A stretch of DNA of 32,000 nucleotides, from assembly GCF_000013905.1 (NCBI RefSeq), contig NC_007969.1, positions 1,350,001 through 1,382,000 on the forward strand, in the 5' to 3' direction. The position numbers and the translations under genes were made by a program. How positions within the stretch are numbered: the stretch's first letter is position 1; every line of letters begins with the position of its first letter. Below, in pieces: positions 13,981 through 30,762 of this stretch. The notes under the pieces are model-generated. The model ran no database searches, was not told where the DNA came from, and worked only from the letters and a program-made list of their open reading frames with translations. The DNA is from Psychrobacter cryohalolentis K5 (GTDB lineage Bacteria > Pseudomonadota > Gammaproteobacteria > Pseudomonadales > Moraxellaceae).

Positions 13981-15435
13981 ATGAAGCGATTTTCTATGAT
14001 GTTATCGATGCTTGCCATTGGTATGGCCTCCAGCGCTGCGATGGCTGAGGATACGAGCCTTACTAATACAAGCTTACCTAATGCGACCCTACCTAATATC
14101 AGTCCTGCCAATAGCGTGCTCGTCAATCGAGGTGCCTATATTGCTCGTGCAGCGGACTGTATGGCGTGTCATGGCGAAGACTATACTGGCGGTACAGCAA
14201 TAGAGACCCCTATGGGGGAGATTTATTCTACGAATATCACCCCCTCCAAACGCTATGGTATCGGCAATTATACTGAAAACGATCTAAAAAATGTACTACA
14301 AAAAGGTCGTGCGCCTAGCCATATGCTATATCCTGCTATGCCATATCCTTCTTATAGTGGTATGAAAGAAGAGGATATCAACGCGCTGTTTGCCTATCTG
14401 CAAACCGTTCCAGTAGTAGATGAAGCGCCAAAGCATAAAACTGACCTACCATTTCCTTTCAATATTCGTGCGCTAATGCTCGGTTGGAACTTTTTAAATG
14501 TTCCTTCTACCCAAGGACGTGATGGCCTCAATGAGACGCAGAAGCGCGGTGAGTATCTGGTCAATAATCTAGAACACTGTGGTACTTGCCATACGCCACG
14601 CAACAGCACTATGGGCTTCGATAAAAAAATGTATTTATCTGGAGCGCAGTTAGGGCATTGGTATGCACCTAATATCACCCCTGACGAGTCAAGTGGTATT
14701 GGCAGCTGGAGTGAGCAAGATATCATTACTTATCTACGCACCGGCGAGCTTGATCAGCGCGCTTATGCTGGTGGTCCAATGGGTGAGGCAGTCGCGCATA
14801 GTACTCAATATCTAAAGCAAGAAGACCTAAGCGCGATTGCCTCTTATCTAAAAGCAGTACCTGCCATTCAAACCGATGATAAGGTATCTGCCATCGATGT
14901 CTCACGTTTGCCAACCCGTGTAAACGAATCTATCACCCATGATTTACTTGCCCAAAAAGATTATTTGGCTCAAGCCAAAACTGCTGTTAGTAAGGGCAGT
15001 AATTCACCAGAAGCCTTGTATTTGGCGACATGCGGTAGCTGTCATGGTGTGGACGGCTATGGTCAACCTGATGCACAGTATTCACCCATCGTAGGATTAA
15101 GCAGTCTGCGCCGTGATAAGCCTGATGTGCTCGTCAATATGATTTTGCATGGGGTCGTTGGCAGCACCAATACCTCACCGATTATGCCGGCCTTCTCTGA
15201 TGAGCTGAGCAGCGAGCAAATTGCCAGTATCGCCAATTACGTACGCATCAGCTTTGGCGGTCTTGCCAGCAGCGATGTGAGTGCAGCCGATATCGAGCGC
15301 ATCGCTGCCACTAGCGCCGAAAAGCCATTTTTAATTAAATACGCAGGCTTGCTGGCGATATTGGGTATTATCGTCGCCATTGCTGTCATTATATTTATTA
15401 TTCGAGCCATCATACGCTCTAAGCACCGTCACTGA
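13981..15435 (+). CDS. Membrane-anchored triheme c-type cytochrome, resembling the cytochrome subunit of flavoprotein dehydrogenase complexes
   Basis: It has a Sec signal (MKRFSMMLSMLAIGMASSAAMA|ED) and three CxxCH motifs (CMACH, CGTCH, CGSCH) spaced about 140-150 aa apart. A C-terminal TM helix follows (LLAILGIIVAIAVIIFIIRAII). A GAGGG SD lies 5 nt before the ATG. Confidence 0.9.
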   Translation: MKRFSMMLSMLAIGMASSAAMAEDTSLTNTSLPNATLPNISPANSVLVNRGAYIARAADCMACHGEDYTGGTAIETPMGEIYSTNITPSKRYGIGNYTENDLKNVLQKGRAPSHMLYPAMPYPSYSGMKEEDINALFAYLQTVPVVDEAPKHKTDLPFPFNIRALMLGWNFLNVPSTQGRDGLNETQKRGEYLVNNLEHCGTCHTPRNSTMGFDKKMYLSGAQLGHWYAPNITPDESSGIGSWSEQDIITYLRTGELDQRAYAGGPMGEAVAHSTQYLKQEDLSAIASYLKAVPAIQTDDKVSAIDVSRLPTRVNESITHDLLAQKDYLAQAKTAVSKGSNSPEALYLATCGSCHGVDGYGQPDAQYSPIVGLSSLRRDKPDVLVNMILHGVVGSTNTSPIMPAFSDELSSEQIASIANYVRISFGGLASSDVSAADIERIAATSAEKPFLIKYAGLLAILGIIVAIAVIIFIIRAIIRSKHRH

Positions 15436-15633
15436 TTTGGGTTTCATTTCACCTTTCATCAAACAGCGTAGTAATAAATACTATAAAGCTATGTTAGATA
15501 CTGATTATAAGACAAGGATTATGGCAATTAGATAGAGCGCTATCGTTTGGCAATTATAGACAACAACACGCCAAGTACATTGATAACGATGCGTCTACTA
15601 TCCTGCACCATTGTCTACTTTAAGGATATTATT

Positions 15634-17235
15634 ATGAAAGACATGCTTCAATCACCTACGCGCCGTCAATTGCTTTCGATGATTGGTAAAACAGCGGGCG
15701 CGACCGCCATGTATCAAGCAATGACGACCTTGGGGTTTGCTTCAGAATCCAGTTTTAAGGAAGCAATGGATCTTAAGGGCGCACCTGCTGGCGCGAGCAT
15801 TGTTATTCTTGGTGCTGGTCTTGGTGGGTTGACAGCGGCTTATGAGCTGCGAAAAGCGGGCTACGATGTCAAAGTGCTTGAGTTTCAAAATCGTGGTGGC
15901 GGTCGTAGTTGGACACTGAACAGCGGTGATAAATATACTGAGCTTGGCGGCGAAGAGGTCACTTGTGATTTTGAAGAAGGCAATTATTTCAATGGTGGAC
16001 CATGGCGTTTGCCAAGCCACCACTATGCCGTCTTTCATTATTGCAAACAGTTCGGTGTTGAGATGCAACCCTTTATCCAAACCAATGACCGTGCTTATTT
16101 GCATCGTACTAATCATTTCAATGGCGTACCGCAGCGTTTGGGTGACATCAAAAATGACATTCAAGGTCATGTGGCGGAGCTGCTATCGAAGTCAGTAAAC
16201 GTGGGTGGTCTGGATCGCTCAGTCAATACTGAGGACAAAGAGAAGCTTCTAGAAGGGCTAAAAGGCTGGGGCGTGCTCGATAAAGACTATCGCTACCGCG
16301 CCAGTAATGAGACTACCAAACATCGTGGCTTTAGTGTGTTCCCAGGTGGCGGTTTGATGCCAAATGAAAAGCCGTCAAAGCCATTACCAATCAGTGAGAT
16401 ACTAGATTCAGGCATGTGGGGAGATATTTATAGCAATCACATGACCTATGGACATCAGCCGACCATGTTTCAGCCAGTTGGTGGTATGGGTAAAATCGGT
16501 GATGCTTTCACCCGCGAATGTCGCGATATGATTGAGTTTAATGCCAAAGTCACTAAGATTCATCAAGATGATACTGGCGTTACAGTCGACTATGTGGACA
16601 GCAATAGTCCCGATGGTGCAACCAAAACCATCCGGGCAGACTGGTGTGTCTGCAACATACCTTTAACCGTATTAACCCAGCTCGATATCAATGTCTCAAA
16701 ACCAATGAAACAGGCGATGGCAGCGGTTCCTTATGACACTTCCTATAAAGTAGGTTTGGAATTTAATCGCCGATTCTGGGAAGAAGACGAGTGGATTTAT
16801 GGCGGTTTAACCTATACCAATATGCCTATTACCCAAATTGCTTATCCGTCAGAAAATATGTTTAAAGATGGCTCAGGTGTATTGCTTGGTGCCTATGGTT
16901 TTGGCGCGACTTCTTATAAGTTTAATACTCTAACACCGCAAGAGCGTATCAATGTGGCGCTTGCCTACGGTAAATATATCCATCCGCAGTACCCAAAGGA
17001 ATTCCGCGCCGGAACATCTGTCGTCTGGCACCGTATCCCATGGACACTCGGCTGCTACGGTATTTGGAGTGAGTCGAGTCGTGAGCAGCATTACGATAAC
17101 CTATGCAGTATAGACAACCGTATTGTGCTGACAGGTGAGCATTGCTCTCATATTCCTGCGTGGCAGGAAGGGGCTATATTATCTGGCATAGATGCCGCTA
17201 AACGCTTGCATAAAAAAGCAAAAATGCTGGGTTAA
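15634..17235 (+). CDS. Tat-exported FAD-dependent amine oxidase family protein (L-amino-acid oxidase / monoamine oxidase fold)
   Basis: The ORF track starts at TTG 15547. I prefer ATG 15634, with AAGGA 7 nt upstream, which gives MKDMLQSPTRRQLLSMIGKTAGATAMYQAM, a twin-arginine signal. It has a dinucleotide-binding motif (VILGAGLGGLTAAYELRKAGYDVKVLEFQNRGGGR). It is colinear with the LAAO pattern as recalled (GGPWRLP, VGGMGKI, FWEEDEWIYGG..T..P...I.YP, GEHCS....WQEGAILSG). Confidence 0.85.
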   Translation: MKDMLQSPTRRQLLSMIGKTAGATAMYQAMTTLGFASESSFKEAMDLKGAPAGASIVILGAGLGGLTAAYELRKAGYDVKVLEFQNRGGGRSWTLNSGDKYTELGGEEVTCDFEEGNYFNGGPWRLPSHHYAVFHYCKQFGVEMQPFIQTNDRAYLHRTNHFNGVPQRLGDIKNDIQGHVAELLSKSVNVGGLDRSVNTEDKEKLLEGLKGWGVLDKDYRYRASNETTKHRGFSVFPGGGLMPNEKPSKPLPISEILDSGMWGDIYSNHMTYGHQPTMFQPVGGMGKIGDAFTRECRDMIEFNAKVTKIHQDDTGVTVDYVDSNSPDGATKTIRADWCVCNIPLTVLTQLDINVSKPMKQAMAAVPYDTSYKVGLEFNRRFWEEDEWIYGGLTYTNMPITQIAYPSENMFKDGSGVLLGAYGFGATSYKFNTLTPQERINVALAYGKYIHPQYPKEFRAGTSVVWHRIPWTLGCYGIWSESSREQHYDNLCSIDNRIVLTGEHCSHIPAWQEGAILSGIDAAKRLHKKAKMLG

Positions 17236-17279
17236 TTGCGCCAAAAATAGAGACAATTATTATAAATTCAGAGGCTATC

Positions 17280-17924
17280 ATGAACACTATCATCATGAAA
17301 ATAACTATCATGAAAAGCATGACACCTAAGATGCTGATGATCATGCTGTTAAGCAGCAGCGCATTATTAGGCTGTAGTCAAAAAGCAGGCGATGTAGAGA
17401 CGATAGCCAGTAAGCACGATGCTGAGCAAACGGTTGACTATCAAGCAAGTCGCAATACAGGCAGCTGGGGCGCTGTCTATATGAGCCGTGACGAGCTAAA
17501 AGCGCAGCCTATCAATGTCGTTGATGACAGCTCATTACCCAATATGGAAAATGACCCTATTATTAGCGAGTGGGAAGCAAAATTTGAAGGATCCAATGCC
17601 TTTATTACGACCGATGGCAAAAAGCTCTATCATGACTCCTGTGCTGGCTGTCATATGCATAAAGGCGAAGGCGCTTATGGTGCAGGCTATTATCCGCCAC
17701 TGGCTAACAATAGCAAAATGCAGTCAAAATATTACATCATTAATATACTCATCAATGGTTTCCGCGGAATGCCATCGTTTCATATGATGATGAATGATGA
17801 GCAAATGGCGGCAGTGACTCAATACGTCGTCAGTGACTTAAATAGTTATACGGATACAGTGACCGCTGAAGACGTGGCCAAGCTGAGACATGCCAATCCG
17901 CCCGGTTATGATCCAAGTGAATAG
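17280..17924 (+). CDS. Monoheme class I c-type cytochrome, probable lipoprotein
   Basis: A GAGG SD lies 5 nt before ATG 17280. The signal peptide ends in the lipobox LLG|C. There is a single CAGCH heme motif and a distal GMPSF Met-ligand region. It begins 44 nt after the flavoprotein gene. Confidence 0.8.
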   Translation: MNTIIMKITIMKSMTPKMLMIMLLSSSALLGCSQKAGDVETIASKHDAEQTVDYQASRNTGSWGAVYMSRDELKAQPINVVDDSSLPNMENDPIISEWEAKFEGSNAFITTDGKKLYHDSCAGCHMHKGEGAYGAGYYPPLANNSKMQSKYYIINILINGFRGMPSFHMMMNDEQMAAVTQYVVSDLNSYTDTVTAEDVAKLRHANPPGYDPSE

Positions 17925-22126: not shown

Positions 22127-22292
22127 AGCGTCATTTACAGTCGCAATTTGGAAGCGTCATTTATCGTCGCAATTTAGGTGTATTTTTTATGTTTGAGTTA
22201 AAAGCGGCATTTATCGTCGCAATTTGGAAGCGACATTTATCAATACCATTTGATAATGATAATTTACTCACTGCAATTTGGAAGCGACTCCT
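22127..22292 (+). repeat. Tandem array of a 26-bp unit, AGCGnCATTTAyCGTCGCAATTTGGA, abutting the permease start codon
   Basis: Copies lie at 22127-22152, 22153-22178 and, after a 24-bp AT-rich gap, 22203-22228; these three are 23/26 identical pairwise. Degenerate copies follow at 22229-22254 and 22255-22282, with a partial copy at 22283-22292. Unit junctions form GTCGC-N9-GCGAC dyads centred on TTTGGAAG. Confidence 0.85.
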
Positions 22293-23588
22293 ATGAACGC
22301 AATTGAACGATATTTTGGAATCGATGGTCAGAACACCACGATCAAAACAGAGATTTTAGCGGGTGTAACCACGTTTTTAACGATGGCTTACATCATATTT
22401 GTCAACCCTAATGTACTTGCTGATGCCGGTATGGATAAAGGCGCAGTATTCGTAGCTACCTGTCTTGCCGCGGCTATTGGTTGTTTCATTATGGGTATTT
22501 ATGCCCGCCTGCCAGTGGCCCTAGCGCCTGGAATGGGACTCAACGCCTTCTTTACTTATGGCGTGGTTTTAGGAATGGGCTATGCTTGGCAAACGGCGCT
22601 TGGCGCAGTATTTTTGTCAGGTTGTATCTTTATCCTATTAAGTTTGTTTAAAATCCGTGAAATCATTATTAATTCTATTCCGACCAGTATCAAACAAGGG
22701 GTTGTCGCTGGTATTGGTGCGTTTTTGGCCTTTATTGCGCTCCAAACCGCAGGCGTTATCGTGAATAATGATGCGACGCTAGTGGGACTTGGTGATATGA
22801 CCTCGTTTTCACCTGCGATGGCAGCTCTTGGTTTTATTGTCATCGTAGGTTTGTCACACAAAAAAGTACCAGGTGCGGTCACTATTGGTATTTTACTAGT
22901 CGCGCTTATTAGCCTTGTCACAGGAAATACGCAGTTTACAGGTATTATCTCAGCGCCGCCGCCTATTGCACCAACCCTGATGCAGCTTGATATTGCTGGC
23001 GCGTTTGATGTGGCGATGATCAGTGTTATTTTTGCCTTCTTATTCGTCGATTTATTTGATACGGCGGGTACGCTGATTGCAACCACTACTCAGGCAGGTT
23101 TGATTGGTAAAGATGGTAAAATCCCGAATATGGGTAAAGCGCTACTAGCAGATTCAACGGCAACGGTAGCTGGTACTTTCTTGGGCACGTCATCGACGAC
23201 AAGTTACATCGAAAGTGTGTCGGGTATCGCATCAGGTGGTCGTACTGGACTGATGGCAGTGACAGTTGGCGTGTTATTTTTACTCAGTGTGTTCTTTTCA
23301 CCACTTGCTGGTATGATTCCAGGATATGCGACTGCGGGCGCTATCTTTTATGTAGCAGTACTCATGATGGAAACATTAAAAGACGTCAAATGGAATGACT
23401 TAACAGAAGCGGCGCCAGTGGTGGTCGTACTATTGTTTACGCCTTTGACCTATTCTGTCGCTGACGGTATTGCACTTGGCTTTATCACCTTTACTGCCAT
23501 CAAGATAGTCGCTGGTAAATTCTCTGACATCAGTATTCCGGTTTGGATATTGACAGTAGTATTACTGGCCAAGATCGTTTTTATCTAG
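22293..23588 (+). CDS. NCS2/AzgA-type purine permease (adenine/guanine/hypoxanthine transporter family)
   Basis: It is colinear with E. coli AdeP/GhxP-type permeases as recalled (TEILAGVTTFLTMAYIIFVNP, LPVALAPGMGLNAFF, GTSSTTSYIESVSGIASGGRTGL, SPLAGMIPGYATAGA). The track calls TTG 22278, but ATG 22293, with GGAAG 8 nt upstream, is more plausible. Substrate specificity cannot be read from the sequence. Confidence 0.9.
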   Translation: MNAIERYFGIDGQNTTIKTEILAGVTTFLTMAYIIFVNPNVLADAGMDKGAVFVATCLAAAIGCFIMGIYARLPVALAPGMGLNAFFTYGVVLGMGYAWQTALGAVFLSGCIFILLSLFKIREIIINSIPTSIKQGVVAGIGAFLAFIALQTAGVIVNNDATLVGLGDMTSFSPAMAALGFIVIVGLSHKKVPGAVTIGILLVALISLVTGNTQFTGIISAPPPIAPTLMQLDIAGAFDVAMISVIFAFLFVDLFDTAGTLIATTTQAGLIGKDGKIPNMGKALLADSTATVAGTFLGTSSTTSYIESVSGIASGGRTGLMAVTVGVLFLLSVFFSPLAGMIPGYATAGAIFYVAVLMMETLKDVKWNDLTEAAPVVVVLLFTPLTYSVADGIALGFITFTAIKIVAGKFSDISIPVWILTVVLLAKIVFI

Positions 23589-23653
23589 CTTTTTACATTG
23601 ATTAACGCTCAATATTAAGCAAGGTTGATATTGCTGTAGAAATATAGTTTAAG

Positions 23654-23688
23654 CCCTTCTTATTATTAAATGATAAGAAGGGTTTTTT
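23654..23688 (+). terminator. Rho-independent terminator after the permease gene
   Basis: The hairpin is cccttcttat-tattaaatg-ataagaaggg, a 10-bp perfect stem, followed by TTTTTT. Confidence 0.85.
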
Positions 23689-24092
23689 ATGCTTAATTTT
23701 CCTATTGTTTTAAGATAGTCGTGCCAACTGTTTGATTCCTAAAACAATTAATCATAAATAGTAAATCAGAAATTATAACCAAAGCGTCACGTTTGTGAAT
23801 GCGTTAATAACTGTTTGTTTTTTAACACTATTATAATTGGCTAAAATGCGTAATATTGTTAGTTTGAAAATTTATTTCATGGTAATATGCGGATATTAAG
23901 CGCATCACCTCAATCAACGCCGTAGAGGTTTTTCTTATCAGTGAATCAGCATTGCATATTGCCACTTTATATTGCAAACACTCTCCTTTCACTACTAACA
24001 AGAAGAAGGCACTAATGCCGCTTAGTTTTATGTTGTTGCCTTTGTATTGTTGACGTAGTCCGTTGCACAGTCAAACGATCTACTTGACCTTT

Positions 24093-24122
24093 TCCAGCTT
24101 ATGCTGGATTTTCTCGTTTTTT
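24093..24122 (+). terminator. Terminator-like hairpin plus T-tract inside the putA upstream region
   Basis: The hairpin tccagc-ttat-gctgga is followed by ttttctcgtttttt. The stem is short (6 bp), so confidence is low. It lies about 260 bp upstream of putA and 40 nt after a 12-codon mini-ORF. Confidence 0.35.
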
Positions 24123-24267
24123 AATATTGTCGTGTGTTCTGTTCATTGTTATGTATGTTATCAAAGCCGAATCACTCACACTGCTTAATAGCTGATTGTG
24201 ATTGATTGCTGTTTTCGATAGGGTAGATGATAAAACGTTTCAATACTTTAGCCTTACGACGTTGTTT

Positions 24268-24347
24268 TAGCGCCACAATATTTAAAAGTCACAATATCAA
24301 AAAGTCACAATATCAAAAAGTTTCAATGTTAAAAAGCCTCAGCGCAT
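24268..24347 (+). repeat. Tandem 16-bp repeat (AAAAGTCACAATATCA) array upstream of putA
   Basis: Two perfect copies lie at 24284-24299 and 24300-24315. In-phase degenerate copies lie at 24268-24283 (10/16), 24316-24331 (12/16) and 24332-24347 (8/16). The array ends 35 bp before the putA ATG. Confidence 0.8.
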
Positions 24348-24381
24348 CACTTATGATGGATTTTCAAGTTATGGAGTTGTT

Positions 24382-27300
24382 ATGAACCCAGTAGAGCAAT
24401 TTACCCCGCAAGAGCCGATTTTATTTAATCCTATTGATTTGTTATCACCAGAATATATTGCTCAGTCATCAACAGAGCTACATACGCGTATATCGCCTTT
24501 GTATAGCGTGGATGAAGAGCGCTGGTTGACGCAGTTATTGCCACTTGCCAAACCGACAGATGCCGAGCGTGACAGTGCAGCTACGCAGACGCGTCAGCTG
24601 GTTGAGCATGTGCGCAATGATGGTAAAGCGGTAAAAATGGTCGACTCATTATTGCTTGAGTACAGCTTGGATACCCAAGAAGGTGTTTTGCTCATGAGCT
24701 TGGCGGAAGCCTTGATTCGTGTGCCGGACAATTATACAGCTGATGCGCTGATTCATGACAAGATGAGCGTCGCTGACTGGAAAAAACATTTAAAAAATGA
24801 CAATGGTTTTATGGTCAATGCCTCAACGTGGGGCATGATGATGACAGGTCGTGTGGTGAGCATCGATAGTGATACCACGGCATCTGGATTTTTGGATCGT
24901 ATGACCAAAAAGATGGGTGAGCCTGTTATTCGTAGTGCTATGCAAAAAGCCATGCGTATCATGGGACATCAGTTTGTACTTGGCGAAACGATTGAAGGCG
25001 CTAATAAAAATAGCCAGCCATATCGCAATAAAGGCTATACCTACTCATTTGATATGTTGGGTGAAGCGGCAATTACTCATAAAGATGCTGAAAAATACTT
25101 TAATGATTATTTGCATGCTATCAAAGCCACCGCAAGTGTGAAAGTTAAAGAGGGCATGCCGAAGCCATCAGTTTCTATCAAGCTGTCCGCATTGCATCCG
25201 CGTTATGAAGCCACCCAAGAAGAACAAGTCATGGGGCTGTTGCGTCAACGCTGCTTGTTACTGATTGAAGCGGCGCGTGAAGTCAATGTCGACCTCAGTA
25301 TCGATGCTGAAGAAGCCGATCGTCTTGAGATATCGCTAAAACTATTTGAATCTCTATACCGCGACAATCTAACAGCGGATTGGGATGGTCTTGGTTTAGT
25401 TGTACAAGGTTACTCAAAGCGTGCAATTGCTATTTTGTCTTGGCTGGCACGCTTGGCAACTGAGGTTGGCGACCGTATTCCTGTACGTCTAGTAAAGGGC
25501 GCTTATTGGGATACAGAAATCAAGTTGGCGCAGCAAAAAGGTCTATCAGGCTATCCGGTTTGGACGCGTAAAGAAGGCACGGATACCGCTTATCTTGCCT
25601 GCGCACGTTTCTTATTATCAGAGCATTTGCGTGGTCTTATTTGGCCACAGTTTGCAACGCACAATGCGCACACGCTTGCTTCAATCATGACCATGAGCTC
25701 GCACAGAGACTTTGAGTTCCAGCGTCTCCATGGTATGGGTGATGCGCTTTATGACCATATCTTACAAGCTTATCAAATTCCTGTGCGTATCTATGCACCG
25801 GTTGGCGCTCATAAAGATCTGCTGCCGTATTTGGTACGTCGATTGCTCGAAAACGGTGCCAATAGCTCGTTTGTCCATCAGTTATTAGACAAGTCTTATC
25901 CAATTGACAAGCTAACTGTACATCCGTATGACAAGCTATTAACCAATGCAACGCTACATAATCCAGATATTCCATTACCGTTAGCTATCTATGGCGCACG
26001 CCGTGCCAGCTTTGGTCCCAATATCTTTGTAGAATCGCAGTGGATACCGTTTAAAGCAGCTATCGATACGCATATACACAAAACATGGTCTGCGACTTCT
26101 GTTATTAATGGCAACGCAGTCAATGACAATACGGTAGATGGCGACACTCATCAGCTTGACAAGCAAGCTATATGTGCGCCTTGGAACCATGAAGTCATTG
26201 CCGGTGAAGTCGTCTATGCCAATGCTACTATCGCACAGCAAGCAATTGCGGCGGCAGTTGCTGGACAAGGCGAATGGCAAGCGGTTGCTGCTACTAAACG
26301 TGCGGCTATATTGCGTAAAATCGCGGACTTGTATGAAGAAAACTATGCAGAGCTGATGGCATTATGCCAAGTTGAGGCAGGTAAAACCTTACAAGACAGC
26401 ATTGATGAAATCAAAGAAGCGGTTGATTTTTGCCGTTTTTATGCTGATGAAGCTGAGCGTTTAGATGATGTTATTTATGAGTTTACCGATTTGGCAGGCA
26501 AGCCGTCGCGTCAAGTTTATAAAGCACGTGGCACCTTTATTTGTATCAGCCCATGGAACTTTCCATTGGCTATTTATACCGGTCAAGTAGTTGCAGCACT
26601 GGCTGCAGGTAATACCGTAGTGGCAAAACCTGCCGAACAGACGAGCTTAATCGCTCATTTCGGTGCGCAGCTTATGTATCAAGCTGGCGTGCCAGTAGAA
26701 GCATTGCAACTCGTGATTGGCGCGGGCGACGTTGGTGCTGCATTGACTGCTGCGGACAATATCGCAGGTGTTATCTTTACAGGTTCGACCCAAACGGCGC
26801 AGCGCATCAACCAAAGCCTAAATGCCCATGCTCAAGTCAGTGGTGAGCTGCCTGTCTTTATCGCCGAGACTGGCGGACAAAATGCCATGATTATGGACTC
26901 AACGGCATTGCCTGAGCAAGTGGTTAGAGATGCGGTATTATCTGCCTTTGGTTCAGCAGGTCAGCGCTGTTCAGCATGTCGTATCTTATGTGTACAAGAA
27001 GAGATGGCAGATGATTTGATTGAGCTATTGCAAGGCAATATGGCTGAATTAATCGTTGGCAACCCGCTATATGCGACTACAGATGTAGGTCCTGTGATTG
27101 ATATTGATGCCAAGCGCGGACTTGAAGCGCATATCGAACGCATGCGCGCTGAGCCAACGGCTACGATTTTGGCGCAGACACCGATGAGTGATAGCTCAGA
27201 GGTCAGTCAAGATCAAGCAACGTTTGTATTGCCAACGGCGATAGAAGTAAAAAGTATCGATGTGATCGGTGGAGAGCATTTTGGTCCTATTTTGCATGTA

Positions 27301-27639
27301 CTGCGTTATGAAGCACGTGATCTAAATAAGCTGATTGATGCAATCAATGCGACGGGTTTTGGTTTGACCTTGGGCATCCATAGCCGTATTGAAAACACAG
27401 TAGAGCATATCGAGCGCCGAGCCTTTGTCGGCAATACTTATATCAACCGTAACCAAATCGGCGCGGTCGTCAACGTACAGCCGTTCGGTGGCTGCGGTCT
27501 ATCGGGCACAGGTCCCAAAGCAGGTGGTCCACATTATGTCGCCCGTCTGATGAGCTTAACGACAGAGCAGTTGGCTAATGAGCAAGTGGCTCTGATAGAC
27601 AATACCGCTGCAACCAGTACTCAAACAATAATCGCATAA
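24382..27639 (+). CDS. putA: Bifunctional proline dehydrogenase / L-glutamate-gamma-semialdehyde (P5C) dehydrogenase, lacking both the DNA-binding domain and the C-terminal domain
   Basis: The 1085-aa ORF has a GGAG SD 5 nt upstream. The PRODH barrel region is present (YSFDMLGEAA, VRLVKGAYWDTEIK, VRRLLENGANSSFV). The ALDH domain is present (ISPWNFPLAI, ETGGQNA, catalytic Cys in GQRCSA, QPFGGCGLSGTGPKAGGP). No N-terminal ribbon-helix-helix segment is recognisable. Confidence 0.95.
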   Translation: MNPVEQFTPQEPILFNPIDLLSPEYIAQSSTELHTRISPLYSVDEERWLTQLLPLAKPTDAERDSAATQTRQLVEHVRNDGKAVKMVDSLLLEYSLDTQEGVLLMSLAEALIRVPDNYTADALIHDKMSVADWKKHLKNDNGFMVNASTWGMMMTGRVVSIDSDTTASGFLDRMTKKMGEPVIRSAMQKAMRIMGHQFVLGETIEGANKNSQPYRNKGYTYSFDMLGEAAITHKDAEKYFNDYLHAIKATASVKVKEGMPKPSVSIKLSALHPRYEATQEEQVMGLLRQRCLLLIEAAREVNVDLSIDAEEADRLEISLKLFESLYRDNLTADWDGLGLVVQGYSKRAIAILSWLARLATEVGDRIPVRLVKGAYWDTEIKLAQQKGLSGYPVWTRKEGTDTAYLACARFLLSEHLRGLIWPQFATHNAHTLASIMTMSSHRDFEFQRLHGMGDALYDHILQAYQIPVRIYAPVGAHKDLLPYLVRRLLENGANSSFVHQLLDKSYPIDKLTVHPYDKLLTNATLHNPDIPLPLAIYGARRASFGPNIFVESQWIPFKAAIDTHIHKTWSATSVINGNAVNDNTVDGDTHQLDKQAICAPWNHEVIAGEVVYANATIAQQAIAAAVAGQGEWQAVAATKRAAILRKIADLYEENYAELMALCQVEAGKTLQDSIDEIKEAVDFCRFYADEAERLDDVIYEFTDLAGKPSRQVYKARGTFICISPWNFPLAIYTGQVVAALAAGNTVVAKPAEQTSLIAHFGAQLMYQAGVPVEALQLVIGAGDVGAALTAADNIAGVIFTGSTQTAQRINQSLNAHAQVSGELPVFIAETGGQNAMIMDSTALPEQVVRDAVLSAFGSAGQRCSACRILCVQEEMADDLIELLQGNMAELIVGNPLYATTDVGPVIDIDAKRGLEAHIERMRAEPTATILAQTPMSDSSEVSQDQATFVLPTAIEVKSIDVIGGEHFGPILHVLRYEARDLNKLIDAINATGFGLTLGIHSRIENTVEHIERRAFVGNTYINRNQIGAVVNVQPFGGCGLSGTGPKAGGPHYVARLMSLTTEQLANEQVALIDNTAATSTQTIIA

Positions 27640-27650
27640 GGAGTAGCACT

Positions 27651-28340
27651 ATGGCGACTGAATTCAAAAAAAATCATGGCCAAGTTTGTGAAACTTGGCG
27701 TTTGCTTGGCGCAGTGAATCGTGCCACTTATCTGCAAGAAGCCGCACCAAGACTGGCATTATTGACCGGTGATGCCAATAAGGCAAAGCGTCTGTTCAAT
27801 CATTTATTGAGCGCCGCACCCATGCTTGACGAAGAGCACCGTATGACTGGTGCTACGGGCGAGTCAAATGACTTGTACGTGACAGGTCGCGGTAAGACGA
27901 TGGTTGTTGGCGGCGAGTCTGCTCGCGCTATGGCAGTACTTGGGCAGTTGCTAGCAGCATTATTAACGGGTAATGAGGTGATATTGCATTGCCCAAGCCA
28001 AGAAGAGATGTGCATTGAAGCGGCAAAAATCCTCTATGAAAGTGGTATCAGTGATGATGTGCTGAGTGTCGCCAATGACTCGCAAACCGTCACGCTTTTA
28101 TACATCGATCGCCTCGCGCAAGTGGCTGTTTCTGGTAATCGGAAAGAGGTGCAAGCGGTCAGTCAAGAGCTTGCCAAGACTGATGGTATGTTGACGCAAG
28201 TCATTAGCGTCACTGATATGGACGGCTTATCAGAGATGCTAACGCCTGATTATCTATACCGCTTCGTCACTGAGCGTGTAAAAACCATTAATACCACTGC
28301 CATTGGCGGAAATGCAAGCTTGTTAGAACTTGGCACATAG
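27651..28340 (+). CDS. Stand-alone homologue of the PutA C-terminal (ALDH-superfamily-fold) domain
   Basis: The 229-aa ORF starts 11 nt after the putA stop and has an AGGAG SD 5 nt upstream. HRMTGATGESNDLYVTGRGKTMVVGG resembles the LPGPTGERN...R.RVLCIA stretch of E. coli PutA. The C-terminus ERVKTINTTAIGGNASLLELGT resembles the extreme C-terminus ...SVNTAAAGGNASLMTIG. Both E. coli stretches are quoted from memory. Confidence 0.75.
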   Translation: MATEFKKNHGQVCETWRLLGAVNRATYLQEAAPRLALLTGDANKAKRLFNHLLSAAPMLDEEHRMTGATGESNDLYVTGRGKTMVVGGESARAMAVLGQLLAALLTGNEVILHCPSQEEMCIEAAKILYESGISDDVLSVANDSQTVTLLYIDRLAQVAVSGNRKEVQAVSQELAKTDGMLTQVISVTDMDGLSEMLTPDYLYRFVTERVKTINTTAIGGNASLLELGT

Positions 28341-28432
28341 AAGTAACAGCAACAATTTAGTACAGGCAACCAATAATCTCATAAGAAGTTAAAAGATTAG
28401 CTTATTGCCAATAAAGAAATAGCTCGAATAGT

Positions 28433-28492
28433 AAAAATGACGATCAGTCATTATTCCCAAATATTTGGTGAGTAATTTCTGGTCGTTTTTTT
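28433..28492 (+). terminator. Probable terminator of the putA operon
   Basis: An outer 8-bp stem, acgatcag (28440-28447) with ctggtcgt (28479-28486), has one G-U pair. It encloses a palindrome, ccaaatatttgg (28457-28468), and runs into a 7-T tract. It lies about 100 nt after the stop at 28340. Confidence 0.5.
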
Positions 28493-29103
28493 ATGCTTAA
28501 ATTTAGAGGTAGGATAGGTAGGTATTTTAGTAAATACTCACTTTAGTAATGAAGTTTCTTGGCTTTTCAACCAAAATAAGGTATTTTTTGAGTTGTAAGT
28601 TAAACAAAGATGGTGATAATATAAGTTAACCGTTTAGTCAGCAATTATTCACTAAATGGTTAATAAATCCCTTTAACACGGAACGTTGACGTAAGCTAAG
28701 CCTTGAAAGCATGTTTTAACGGTGCTTATATTCCTCGATTTTCCAATAGAGTAGTCGTCGTTAAGACGATACCCAAACCCTTGATAATGCTTTTGTATTT
28801 ACTAAAGATGCTCATCCATCATAGGTAAATTAAAAAGTTCAAACCGCAAACAGATTAAGCCTGAGCAAGTCAGTAGTCAGATAGGCAGTCAGCTTATTCA
28901 ATACAGTTATAACTCTCAGTATTGATGTAGGTATGATGATCATCATCGTATAAATTTTATTAACATGGTAATTAAGTACTCACTTAAGGGCAGCGCATTT
29001 GTGTGCAGTTATCCTTTAAGATACTGATTGTTAAGATTTTATGATTCGATTAAAGATAAAGCAGTTTTTTATCTTCCTTTTATTCTGACAGCTGAGCATT
29101 GCT

Positions 29104-30762
29104 ATGATTCATTTTTATTTGAACGGTCAATATAAGCAATTAACTGACCTCAATCCGAATACCACGGTGCTTGAGTATTTGCGCTTGCACGAACGCCAGA
29201 CTGATACCAAAGAAGGCTGCGGCAGTGGCGACTGCGGAGCCTGTACGGTGATGGCGCAGCGCTTACCTAGCAGTGATGAAGATTCTTCTGATTTGCCTTT
29301 TTATACCCTTAACGCCTGTATCACGCTACTGTCATTGATGGATGGTCATCATATAATGACGTCAGCTTATATCGCGGACAATCCTGAACATCATCCAGAA
29401 CGTGCTTTATTGCACCCAGCGCAGCAAGCAATGGTCGAATGCCATGGCTCGCAGTGCGGGTTTTGTACGCCTGGATTTGTGATGACACTGGCCAGCACCT
29501 ACGAGAATCATCGTCTGCAAGTCGCAAAGGGAACCATCAAAGATGATTTGAGCTACGATGATATTGTGGCTGCAATTGGTGGGAATCTTTGCCGCTGTAC
29601 GGGCTATCGTCCTATTATCGAGGCGGGCTTGGCAATGAGTGAGATTGGTAGACAACGCGATGCTGATCAGACGATCGCCAAAGACTTGACCATCAGTTTA
29701 GCGACAGATGCGATGGCAAATAGCAGACAAACCGTTTCAAGCGAAATGGGTACTATTGAGCCTGCGCTTAATCAAGGGTCACGTAAGTTATTCATTCCAA
29801 AGTCTGTTGCTGAGCTCAATCAAGTGCTCGCTGCCCATCCAAAAGCGACCATTTGGGCAGGTGGTACGGACTTAGGTTTGAGTGTGACGCAACACTTGGT
29901 GGATCACGATATTATCGTACAACTGTCAGCGATTGACGAGCTAAAATCTTGGTCACTACAAGCGTTAAGCTTAAATACCGATGAGCAGTCTAAAAGCGAT
30001 AGCGAAGTAGAGTTTTTAGTATTGGGTGCTGGCATGAGCTATAAGAGCATGCTGCCTGCGCTTGAACAACATTTCCCTGCGTTTGCCAATTTGTTTGAAC
30101 GTATTGCTTCTCCGCAAATCCGTAATATGGGCACTATCGGCGGTAACGTCGCTAACGCTTCACCGATTGGCGATTTGCCTCCCATTCTATTGGCATTAGA
30201 TACTCATATTCATCTGCGTCATTGTGCTGCTATTGACAATTCTATTAACAGCGCTACTGACAATATCAATGTTAATAATGTCCATTCAAATCAAGTATCT
30301 AGTATTGATGAAATCATTCCTTTATCTAAATTCTTTTTAGATTATAAAAAGACCAAACTACGTGCTGGTAGTTACGTGGTAGCCCTTCATATTCCGCTAA
30401 TGCAAGATAATCAGTATCTCTATATTCATAAGATTAGTAAGCGTTACGAAGATGATATCTCAGCGTGCTTGCTTGCTGCGCGACTTGATTTGTCAGCGGA
30501 TGGCATGACTATCCAAGATGCAAAATTTGGACTTGGCGGCATGGCGGCGATACCTTTATTGGCAGCAGAATGTCAGCAGGCACTAATTGGACAAGCAGTA
30601 AATGTTGCCAGTTTCGAGCAGGCAGCACAAAGGCTACCTAATGATGTCTCACCGATGACCGATGTGAGAGCCAGCCGAGAGTATCGTATGCATGTGATGC
30701 AGCGGTTAATCATTAAGTGTGGCAAGCAATTGGTTGCTGATGTGCAAGCGGTAGATGCGTAA
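29104..30762 (+). CDS. xdhA: Xanthine dehydrogenase small subunit (2x[2Fe-2S] + FAD-binding)
   Basis: It has the N-terminal plant-type ferredoxin motif CGSGDCGACTV, a second cluster motif CGFCTPGF...CRCTGYRPI, and an FAD domain (WAGGTDLGL, NMGTIGGNVANASPIGD). It contains an N/S-rich insertion (AIDNSINSATDNINVNNVHSNQVSS). Confidence 0.93.
   Translation: MIHFYLNGQYKQLTDLNPNTTVLEYLRLHERQTDTKEGCGSGDCGACTVMAQRLPSSDEDSSDLPFYTLNACITLLSLMDGHHIMTSAYIADNPEHHPERALLHPAQQAMVECHGSQCGFCTPGFVMTLASTYENHRLQVAKGTIKDDLSYDDIVAAIGGNLCRCTGYRPIIEAGLAMSEIGRQRDADQTIAKDLTISLATDAMANSRQTVSSEMGTIEPALNQGSRKLFIPKSVAELNQVLAAHPKATIWAGGTDLGLSVTQHLVDHDIIVQLSAIDELKSWSLQALSLNTDEQSKSDSEVEFLVLGAGMSYKSMLPALEQHFPAFANLFERIASPQIRNMGTIGGNVANASPIGDLPPILLALDTHIHLRHCAAIDNSINSATDNINVNNVHSNQVSSIDEIIPLSKFFLDYKKTKLRAGSYVVALHIPLMQDNQYLYIHKISKRYEDDISACLLAARLDLSADGMTIQDAKFGLGGMAAIPLLAAECQQALIGQAVNVASFEQAAQRLPNDVSPMTDVRASREYRMHVMQRLIIKCGKQLVADVQAVDA

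Follow-up and report, generated by a model that had tools for sequence, protein, structure and literature searches.

A Separately Encoded C-Terminal Domain of PutA in Psychrobacter and Other Gammaproteobacteria

Results

Organization of the putA Locus

We analyzed a 32,000-nucleotide stretch of the Psychrobacter cryohalolentis K5 genome (contig NC_007969.1, positions 1,350,001 to 1,382,000, forward strand), called the window throughout this report, in which a gene for the proline-catabolic enzyme PutA is followed closely by a small gene in another reading frame. PutA is a textbook case of substrate channelling. The types of this enzyme listed in the open literature are the covalent types A, B, and C only (PMC5293562, PMC12041015). 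The evidence given below supports the assignment of the small gene to the PutA C-terminal domain (CTD), here encoded as a polypeptide of its own. The relevant features, numbered from the first nucleotide of the window, are as follows.

24382..27639, + strand: putA, large subunit, 1085 amino acids (from the list of open reading frames, ORFs)
27550..27636, + strand: tail of the large subunit after GPHYVARL (MSLTTEQLANEQVALIDNTAATSTQTIIA), 29 residues, poorly conserved
27637..27653, + strand: junction, with putA stop codon, Shine–Dalgarno (SD) sequence, spacer, and small-gene ATG (from the sequence)
27651..28340, + strand: small gene, assigned below to the PutA CTD, 229 amino acids (from the list of ORFs)
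27843..27869, + strand: MTGATGESN, residues 65-73 of the small protein, equivalent of PGPTGExN, preceding the flap hairpin
28245..28334, + strand: PDYLYRFVTERVKTINTTAIGGNASLLELG, residues 199-228 of the small protein, equivalent of GPxYLxRF followed by the C-terminal motif

The junction sequence is taAGGAGtagcactATG, which divides into ...ATC GCA TAA GGAGTAGCACT ATG GCG.... The TAA stop codon of putA (27637-27639) is overlapped by the SD sequence AAGGAG (27638-27643), and a 7-nt spacer leads from there to the ATG at 27651, which lies 11 nt beyond the stop and out of the putA frame ((27651-24382) mod 3 = 2). A sequence-only reading of this DNA had described a 1085-residue PutA ending about 30 residues past the aldehyde dehydrogenase (ALDH) C-terminal motif, and a 229-residue ORF starting 11 nt later, in another frame, behind a near-consensus SD. 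Both descriptions are accurate, with the large chain ending 29 residues past GPHYVARL. A scan of the sequence between the two genes found no promoter and no convincing terminator.

The Large Protein Is a Bifunctional PutA

The large ORF matches the NCBIfam model PRK11904 over residues 24-1079 with 1524 bits (cutoff 747), and its Pfam domains are PRODH-N, Pro_dh-DNA_bdg, Pro_dh (1.8e-97), and Aldedh (1.6e-102). These correspond to the N-terminal arm of proline dehydrogenase (PRODH), the alpha domain, the PRODH barrel, and a complete glutamate semialdehyde dehydrogenase (GSALDH) module, also called P5C dehydrogenase (P5CDH). The catalytic motifs ISPWNFP, AETGGQNA, and GQRCSA of GSALDH are all present in alignment with BjPutA. 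The ALDH module as a whole aligns to residues 550-983 of BjPutA (E = 1.7e-130) and 592-1036 of SmPutA. Pfam and NCBIfam searches revealed no RHH domain in the large ORF. Its alignment to PRK11809, the model for trifunctional PutA, begins only at model position 90 and reaches 1142 bits, under the cutoff of 1750. These matches identify the large ORF as a genuine bifunctional PutA that lacks an RHH domain.

The large ORF also has no CTD, and gave no second-domain match to positions 195-230 of a profile built from 95 stand-alone homologues of the small protein (the stand-alone profile). The first residues of its tail behind GPHYVARL are predicted to form a beta-strand (residues 528-534 of the AlphaFold2, AF2, chimera described below). 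The last part of this tail, at 27606-27636 (...ALIDNTAATSTQTIIA), holds the letters DNTAAT, which faintly resemble the start xNTxAxGGN of the C-terminal motif. This likeness is probably coincidental, because it is not kept in other Psychrobacter tails and gives no profile match.

The Small Protein Corresponds to the PutA CTD

The sequence-only reading had likened the small ORF to the C-terminal ~190 residues of long PutAs, with profile similarity to PutA CTDs set beforehand as the test. This similarity is significant. The small ORF aligns to the last 167 positions of PRK11809 (1152-1318 of 1318, E = 2.5e-12) and to residues 1082-1235 of SmPutA (PDB 5kf6, E = 1.4e-6), and positions 5-230 of the stand-alone profile cover the C-terminal ~230 residues of nine fused PutAs with 93-180 bits. 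Given this span, the entire 229-residue ORF corresponds to the CTD; the proposed homology stands, and its extent is larger than had been claimed. Matches were also found to the NAD-binding domain of BjPutA (628-795) and to its C-terminal 28 residues (970-997). Such matches come as no surprise, since the PutA CTD is a diverged form of an ALDH N-domain with its flap.

Both conserved stretches that had been recognized by eye, the PGPTGExN-like segment and the terminal motif, are present. Within MTGATGESN, residues G67, T69, G70, E71, and N73 are near-invariant among the 95 stand-alone homologues. When fused PutAs are included, G626 and E627 (chimera numbering) are invariant and G623 and T625 nearly so. 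The small protein ends in ...PDYLYRFVTERVKTINTTAIGGNASLLELGT, the equivalent of the NTxAxGGNAxLL motif, with KTINTTAIGGNASLLELGT as the motif stretch. Near-invariant residues in this region are E208, N214, A217, G219, G220, N221, and L224 (95 homologues).

An AF2 model of the small protein, computed from the stand-alone alignment, has a mean predicted local distance difference test score (pLDDT) of 92.4 and a predicted template-modeling score (pTM) of 0.89. The predicted fold comprises three N-terminal helices, a beta-hairpin (the flap), a Rossmann-like alpha/beta core, a C-terminal strand, and a terminal helix. Foldseek matches this model to the N-domain-plus-flap part of PutAs and of many ALDHs (TMq about 0.65).

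What separates the small protein from a functional ALDH is the excision of the catalytic domain, such that the ET(G/D) strand is joined to PxYLxRF (...SVTDMDGLSEMLTPDYLYRF, compared to ...INESGGPDYLLRF in fused PutAs). Alignment with the ALDH module of its own large chain (23% identity, 33.5 bits) reveals no counterparts in the small ORF of the catalytic Asn (ISPWNFP), Glu (AETGG), and Cys (GQRCS). The Pfam Aldedh model scores 16.9 bits, under its cutoff of 23, and is matched at positions 139-224 of 461 only. With regard to NAD+ binding, the alignment with its own ALDH module shows the Lys of VVAKPAEQT replaced by His and GSTxxG by GNRKEV. These sequence and modeling data support the conclusion that the small ORF is a separately encoded, non-catalytic PutA CTD with a predicted ALDH-superfamily fold. 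A recent duplication of the adjacent ALDH module was considered as its origin and rejected, given the identity of 23% and the clustering of the N-domains of split large chains with other ALDH N-domains.

The C-Terminal Motif Lies on the Small Chain

PutA proteins end in the conserved motif ...RFxTE+TxTxNTxAxGGNAxLL. In all 18 type A PutAs sampled (945-1208 residues), this motif stands right behind GPxYL, at a distance of about 16 residues, and in nine of nine fused PutAs it closes the CTD. It is absent from every split large subunit examined (18 of 18; 7 named and 11 metagenomic), which stop 10-30 non-conserved residues past GPxYLxRF, and is carried instead by the small chain. The nearest type A protein sampled, the 1073-residue PutA of Halopseudomonas pertucinogena, has its own motif, and its gene is directly followed by putP and has no small partner. 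Of all the sequence evidence, this reciprocity argues most strongly that the two chains function as a single enzyme.

We also observed that the motif of Halopseudomonas-type PutAs (1073-1074 residues), RFVTERTRTINTAAIGGNASLL, is almost the same as the one in the small subunits. It gives the best score of any type A protein against the stand-alone profile (53.7 bits).

The Junction and Small Gene Are Conserved in Psychrobacter

A search of genome contigs with the small protein recovered loci from 80 Psychrobacter species genomes, with identities of 86-98% and P. glacincola-like genomes closest to the window. Two loci are unreadable at the junction, one because of a run of N and one because the match begins at residue 5. 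All 78 readable loci have the same TAAGGAG-N7-ATG junction, with its 11-nt gap and frame change. No internal stop occurs in 79 small-gene copies, for which the median pairwise ratio of nonsynonymous to synonymous substitution (dN/dS) is 0.03 at a dS of about 1.2. The N-terminal 58 residues (0.026) and the remainder (0.032) are similarly constrained. The uniform junction, the low dN/dS, and the lack of stops together exclude assembly error and pseudogenisation, and bear out the earlier judgment that a sequencing frameshift is unlikely.

Over its first ~12 codons (27651-27690), the small ORF has a synonymous-site entropy of 0.29, compared to 0.95 for the whole ORF, and the last putA codons and the 11-nt spacer are likewise almost invariant across the genus. 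Such suppressed synonymous variation fits a constrained translation-initiation region.

Two-Gene PutA Systems Are Widespread

A protein search against 1.84 billion representatives returned 459 matches. Among the best 150 clusters at 50% identity, about 94 are stand-alone proteins of 195-270 residues, and the fused CTDs of PutAs with 1196-1354 residues scored lower than the stand-alone proteins. A second search, with a profile from which Psychrobacter was omitted, yielded 697 clusters at 90% identity with E below 1e-15. Every one of the best 120 of these clusters is 228-245 residues long, and their sources are Photobacterium, Vibrio, Aliivibrio, Salinivibrio, Enterovibrio, Grimontia, Veronia, Psychromonas, Moritella, Agarivorans, Marinobacterium, and Nitrincola.

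Inspection of gene contexts in six further genera placed the small gene directly 3′ of a putA gene encoding 1037-1057 residues, with the following distances from putA stop to small-gene start.

Enterovibrio norvegicus: -4 nt
Marinobacterium arenosum: -4 nt
Psychromonas: +2 nt
Aliagarivorans: +1 nt
Vibrio hippocampi: +28 nt
Nitrincola: -1 nt

The gene putP (SSF family) lies immediately or shortly 3′ in four of these six loci (Enterovibrio, Marinobacterium, V. hippocampi, and Aliagarivorans), and three (Enterovibrio, Psychromonas, and Nitrincola) have an AraC-family regulator upstream. In Salinivibrio, the annotated order is AraC, putA (1037 residues), “aldehyde dehydrogenase family protein” (236 residues), and putP. 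Vibrio campbellii carries putA (1043 residues), the junction TAAGGAGTCGCATTATG, a small gene of 235 residues, and putP. Its junction, with an 11-nt gap and the SD over the stop, is nearly identical to that of Psychrobacter.

When metagenomes were scanned with the second profile, most matches were ALDH N-domains of ordinary PutAs, and 16 loci were informative. All 11 loci with a stand-alone copy show the putA–small gene arrangement, and four loci carry fused PutAs of about 1262 residues. Overall, the putA genes of split pairs encode ~1040-1100 residues.

The arrangement therefore occurs in at least four gammaproteobacterial orders, and split PutA is a large family rather than a peculiarity of Psychrobacter. 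The sequence-only reading had advised comparison with related putA loci, which proved to be split in all 78 readable Psychrobacter loci and also in Vibrio, Photobacterium, Salinivibrio, and others. Its caveat that the split might be a lineage-specific pseudogenisation is contradicted by the conserved junction and by the strong purifying selection.

Origin of the Split

Trees were built by neighbor joining (NJ) only, from distances that are saturated (1.6-2.0). In a tree of N-domain-like segments, 41 of 50 bootstraps divide the CTDs, without exception, from the ALDH N-domains; the basal grade consists of fused CTDs, and the crown holds most of the stand-alone ones. The PutA cores gave a tree in which the seven split large chains form one clade (bootstrap 97), with the Halopseudomonas-type type A proteins as their sister group (bootstrap 93). 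Fused and stand-alone CTDs have undergone the same catalytic-domain excision, with ET(G/D) joined to PxYLxRF, and this common feature points to the CTD having arisen once.

The split large subunits group in one clade, which makes a single old event the most likely origin, and the near-identical TAAGGAG-N7-ATG junction in Vibrio and Psychrobacter fits one old fission. Fission of a fused type B ancestor in marine Gammaproteobacteria is the simplest, although weakly resolved, reading. CTD-bearing enzymes contain GPxYLxRF twice, so a deletion between these repeats would leave a type A protein in place of a CTD-bearing one. The likeness of the Halopseudomonas motif to that of the small subunit suggests that type A and CTD-bearing forms may interconvert through deletion or duplication between the GPxYLxRF repeats.

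In the CTD tree, some stand-alone representatives of ~200-250 residues fall outside the stand-alone crown and pair with single fused CTDs. These are P0196 with P0183 (a Francisella PutA of 1354 residues), P0193/P0265 with P0178, P0203 with P0230, and P0209 with P0195/P0201. Such off-crown copies could stem from separate fission events or from disruption of putA; they could also be gene calls cut short on small contigs. Francisella genomes are rich in pseudogenes.

A Fused Model Superposes on SmPutA

To model docking, the ALDH module (residues 530-1085) was joined covalently to the 229-residue protein as an artificial chimera; the PRODH half lies outside this model. The multiple sequence alignment (MSA) consisted of the chimera from the window and 13 natural fused PutAs, which are collinear and ~41% identical. 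AF2 returned a pLDDT of 77.4 and a pTM of 0.83 for this artificial fusion, using a shallow MSA and a network trained when SmPutA structures were public. Residues 534-565, which comprise the natural tail and the N-terminus of the small chain, have a pLDDT below 50 and are predicted to be disordered. Foldseek superposes the chimera on SmPutA (5kf6, 9c36, and others) over about 790 columns (TMq 0.78), and type A structures match its ALDH module only (452-534 columns, TMq 0.52-0.56). The model is consistent with type B-like packing, in a permissive manner that is not independent proof.

Surroundings of the Pair in the Window

A strong hairpin resembling an intrinsic terminator (23651-23685; a 16-bp stem followed by TTTAT...) lies right behind the permease gene that precedes putA, which suggests that the putA pair is its own transcription unit. 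The pair is bordered by unusually long non-coding flanks of ~790 nt 5′ of putA (23589-24381) and ~760 nt 3′ of the small gene (28341-29103), in which we found no ORF of at least 60 residues and no Rfam match; indeed, Rfam gave zero family matches anywhere in the window. The neighbors beyond these flanks encode a purine permease (22278-23588) and a xanthine-dehydrogenase-like FAD/2Fe-2S subunit (29104-30762). In contrast to the Vibrionaceae and Oceanospirillales loci, the Psychrobacter pair has no adjoining AraC-type regulator or putP.

Within the small ORF, a conserved run of eight A residues occurs at 27665-27672 (TTC AAA AAA AAT). A 9-bp inverted repeat at 27679-27699 (GCCAAGTTT-GTG-AAACTTGGC), 28 nt inside the ORF, came out of the scan as terminator-like. 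Other Psychrobacter keep it only in part (GCCCAGGTTTGTGAATCTTGGC), and it has no proper U-tract. The hairpin was rejected as a terminator or attenuator and is probably not a terminator.

Elsewhere on the + strand, positions 13981-17924 encode a di-haem-type cytochrome c (484 residues), a flavin amine oxidoreductase (562 residues), and a cytochrome c (214 residues). This cluster may be an amine-oxidising electron-transfer module and is unrelated to the putA pair.

Discussion

A Proposed Heteromeric PutA

The CTD of SmPutA is a pseudo-dimer partner of the ALDH module and seals the channelling tunnel. We consider it likely, with a probability of roughly 0.8, that the product of the gene pair described here is a type B-like PutA of heteromeric build. 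In it, the small chain would provide the functions of this domain in trans, and one mRNA would give rise to both chains in step. The 1085-residue chain would hold both active sites (PRODH and GSALDH), and the 229-residue chain would act as a non-catalytic CTD. Translation of the small chain from the putA mRNA, by re-initiation or coupling at the stop-overlapping SD, would yield roughly matched amounts of the two proteins. The small chain would then dock on the GSALDH module as a pseudo-dimer partner in the manner of the SmPutA CTD. With its beta-flap it would lie over the substrate-channelling tunnel, and with its C-terminal motif it would make the GSALDH module complete. Because tunnel cover and motif would both come from the small chain, the large chain alone is predicted to be a poor GSALDH with a leaky channel.

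Published observations on other PutAs provide context for this proposal. Type B and C PutAs carry a CTD that comes close to the PRODH site and has a part in ALDH activity and channelling, the latter two effects being described for RcPutA (PMC5293562). Type A PutAs rely on domain swapping to cover their tunnel, using the oligomerisation domain of the partner protomer (PMC5786444). The PutA CTD has also been described as a second Rossmann-fold domain, one without NAD+ binding (PMC12041015). In V. campbellii, the genes for the large chain, the small chain, and PutP were down-regulated together on microarrays, and the result for the small gene was confirmed by qRT-PCR (PMC3858670). Thus, the small gene is transcribed and co-regulated with its neighbors in this species.

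Several points weigh against a heteromeric enzyme. The chimera model is permissive rather than decisive, because it rests on a covalent fusion, an MSA with 13 PutAs, and a network whose training data could include SmPutA structures. Moreover, its pLDDT is below 50 for the C-terminal motif (chimera residues 771-785) and the catalytic loop (496-519). In the tree of PutA cores, the sister group of the split large subunits is a type A clade, so that large chains might conceivably pair as a type A-like domain-swapped dimer. Distances between putA and the small gene reach 79 nt in some relatives, and it is from spacing that we deduce translational coupling. The physical complex, its stoichiometry, the need for the small chain in catalysis, and the sealing of the tunnel are likewise matters that we infer.

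Alternative Explanations

Given the sister relationship to genuine type A PutAs (bootstrap 93), it might be proposed that the large chain is self-sufficient, sealing its tunnel as a domain-swapped dimer, and that the small protein is a dispensable accessory or regulator. It could then serve as a reversible channelling cap, promote membrane association or stability, or be a pseudoenzyme with another partner. The predicted beta-strand kept behind GPHYVARL would agree with this proposal, as would the reported ties of CTDs to functional switching and membrane binding, beyond catalysis (PMC5293562). However, every sampled type A protein keeps the C-terminal motif that all 18 split large subunits lack, and the missing motif sits on the small chain. 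The strict adjacency of the genes across orders, the dN/dS of 0.03, and the absence of a small gene beside the Halopseudomonas type A sister are also difficult to reconcile with a dispensable protein, and we regard this explanation as unlikely. The other proposals fare considerably worse. Production of a single fused PutA of ~1300 residues by programmed frameshifting or stop read-through draws on the small-ORF frame being open for some way 5′ of its ATG, on the unusual synonymous-site conservation of the junction and first ~12 codons, and on the A8 run at 27665-27672. This run cannot join the frames, because it lies downstream of the putA stop. There is no slippery heptamer ahead of the TAA, each small ORF has its own ATG and an SD at canonical spacing, and the distances between the genes (-4, -1, +1, +2, 11, 20, 22, 24, 27, 28, and 79 nt) fall in all three phases, making a fused product very improbable.

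A bare stop with a frame change and nothing more is also what a sequencing or assembly frameshift, or a recently decaying pseudogene fragment, would leave. The junction is nevertheless kept in 78 independent Psychrobacter assemblies, with related forms in other genera, and 79 copies have no internal stops and a dN/dS of 0.03 at saturated dS, so that hardly any weight can be given to an artefact. The idea that the small protein is an active P5C dehydrogenase has a similarly negligible chance of being correct. It has in its favor the source names in databases and a published label: for V. campbellii M892_27505-27515, the small gene was named “PutC, P5C dehydrogenase” and the large gene “PutB proline dehydrogenase” (PMC3858670). 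Yet the small protein lacks the whole ALDH catalytic domain together with the catalytic Cys, Glu, and Asn, its Aldedh match is sub-threshold, and a complete GSALDH module is already present on the large protein. Because the catalytic domain and residues are missing, the names “P5C dehydrogenase” and “aldehyde dehydrogenase family protein” are misleading. The “PutC” and P5C dehydrogenase labels are a systematic mis-annotation of a non-catalytic subunit and need correcting.

We also speculate on a further reading, which we consider unlikely, in which the non-covalent CTD is an exchangeable cap that switches PutA between a sealed, channelling form, fully active from proline to glutamate, and an open one. 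How much of the enzyme is capped might depend on relative translation or on conditions such as salt, cold, or redox state, and the open form might release P5C or glutamate semialdehyde or have low GSALDH activity. If this were true, marine Gammaproteobacteria, including Vibrio pathogens, would have a regulatory handle that fused PutAs lack, through which they would regulate proline catabolism and the production of glutamate as an osmolyte.

Implications for PutA Classification

The sequence-only reading knew of no separately expressed CTD, in agreement with the open literature, which gives the covalent types A, B, and C only. We found no paper there that joins PutA with gene fission or separate encoding; subscription journals were outside this search. 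On the basis of the open literature, the separately encoded CTD represents a fourth arrangement beside types A, B, and C, although an earlier mention is possible. Because classification rests on fused domains and the fourth arrangement is widespread, many PutAs of “type A length” (~1040-1100 residues) are probably misclassified. These probably include the proteins of Vibrionaceae (V. campbellii and, by extension, other vibrios), Photobacterium, Psychromonas, and Psychrobacter, and split large PutAs expressed alone may be incomplete enzymes. Domain fission is common, and so the concept itself is not startling. The value of the finding lies in its spread, its clean support, and the correction of annotation and classification in well-studied genera. 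The pair also offers a natural domain dissection, in which adding or omitting a native subunit, instead of truncation, could show what the CTD and motif contribute to GSALDH activity, to the sealing of the tunnel, and to membrane or functional switching.

Comparison with Known Systems

The split enzyme resembles type B PutAs (SmPutA, 5KF6, and RcPutA) in possessing PRODH, a GSALDH module, and a CTD ending in NTxAxGGNAxLL while lacking an RHH domain. However, the Psychrobacter CTD is a polypeptide with its own gene, with the break about 29 residues past GPHYVARL and before the first CTD helix, and the split large chains group away from the sampled fused PutAs in the tree. Type A proteins (BjPutA, 3HAZ, and the PutA of Halopseudomonas pertucinogena) are similar in length to the split large chain and include its closest sequence relative. 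In contrast to these proteins, which have no partner gene, the Psychrobacter large chain is without the end motif, and its gene always has the small gene directly 3′ of it. As regards type C, the small ORF aligns to the last 167 model positions of the E. coli PutA family (PRK11809), but Psychrobacter has no RHH DNA-binding domain and its CTD is unfused.

Two further systems invite comparison. ALDH16 carries an extra Rossmann-like, non-nucleotide-binding domain that resembles the PutA CTD and mediates an atypical dimer (PMC12041015). The likeness is by description only, and this domain is covalently attached to a member of another ALDH family, whereas the small subunit is unfused. The pairs of monofunctional PRODH and P5CDH genes, such as Bacillus putB/putC, also consist of two adjoining genes in a put operon, but there the second gene encodes a complete catalytic ALDH of about 515 residues. 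The “putBCP” label given to the V. campbellii genes probably stems from likeness to such monofunctional two-gene put operons.

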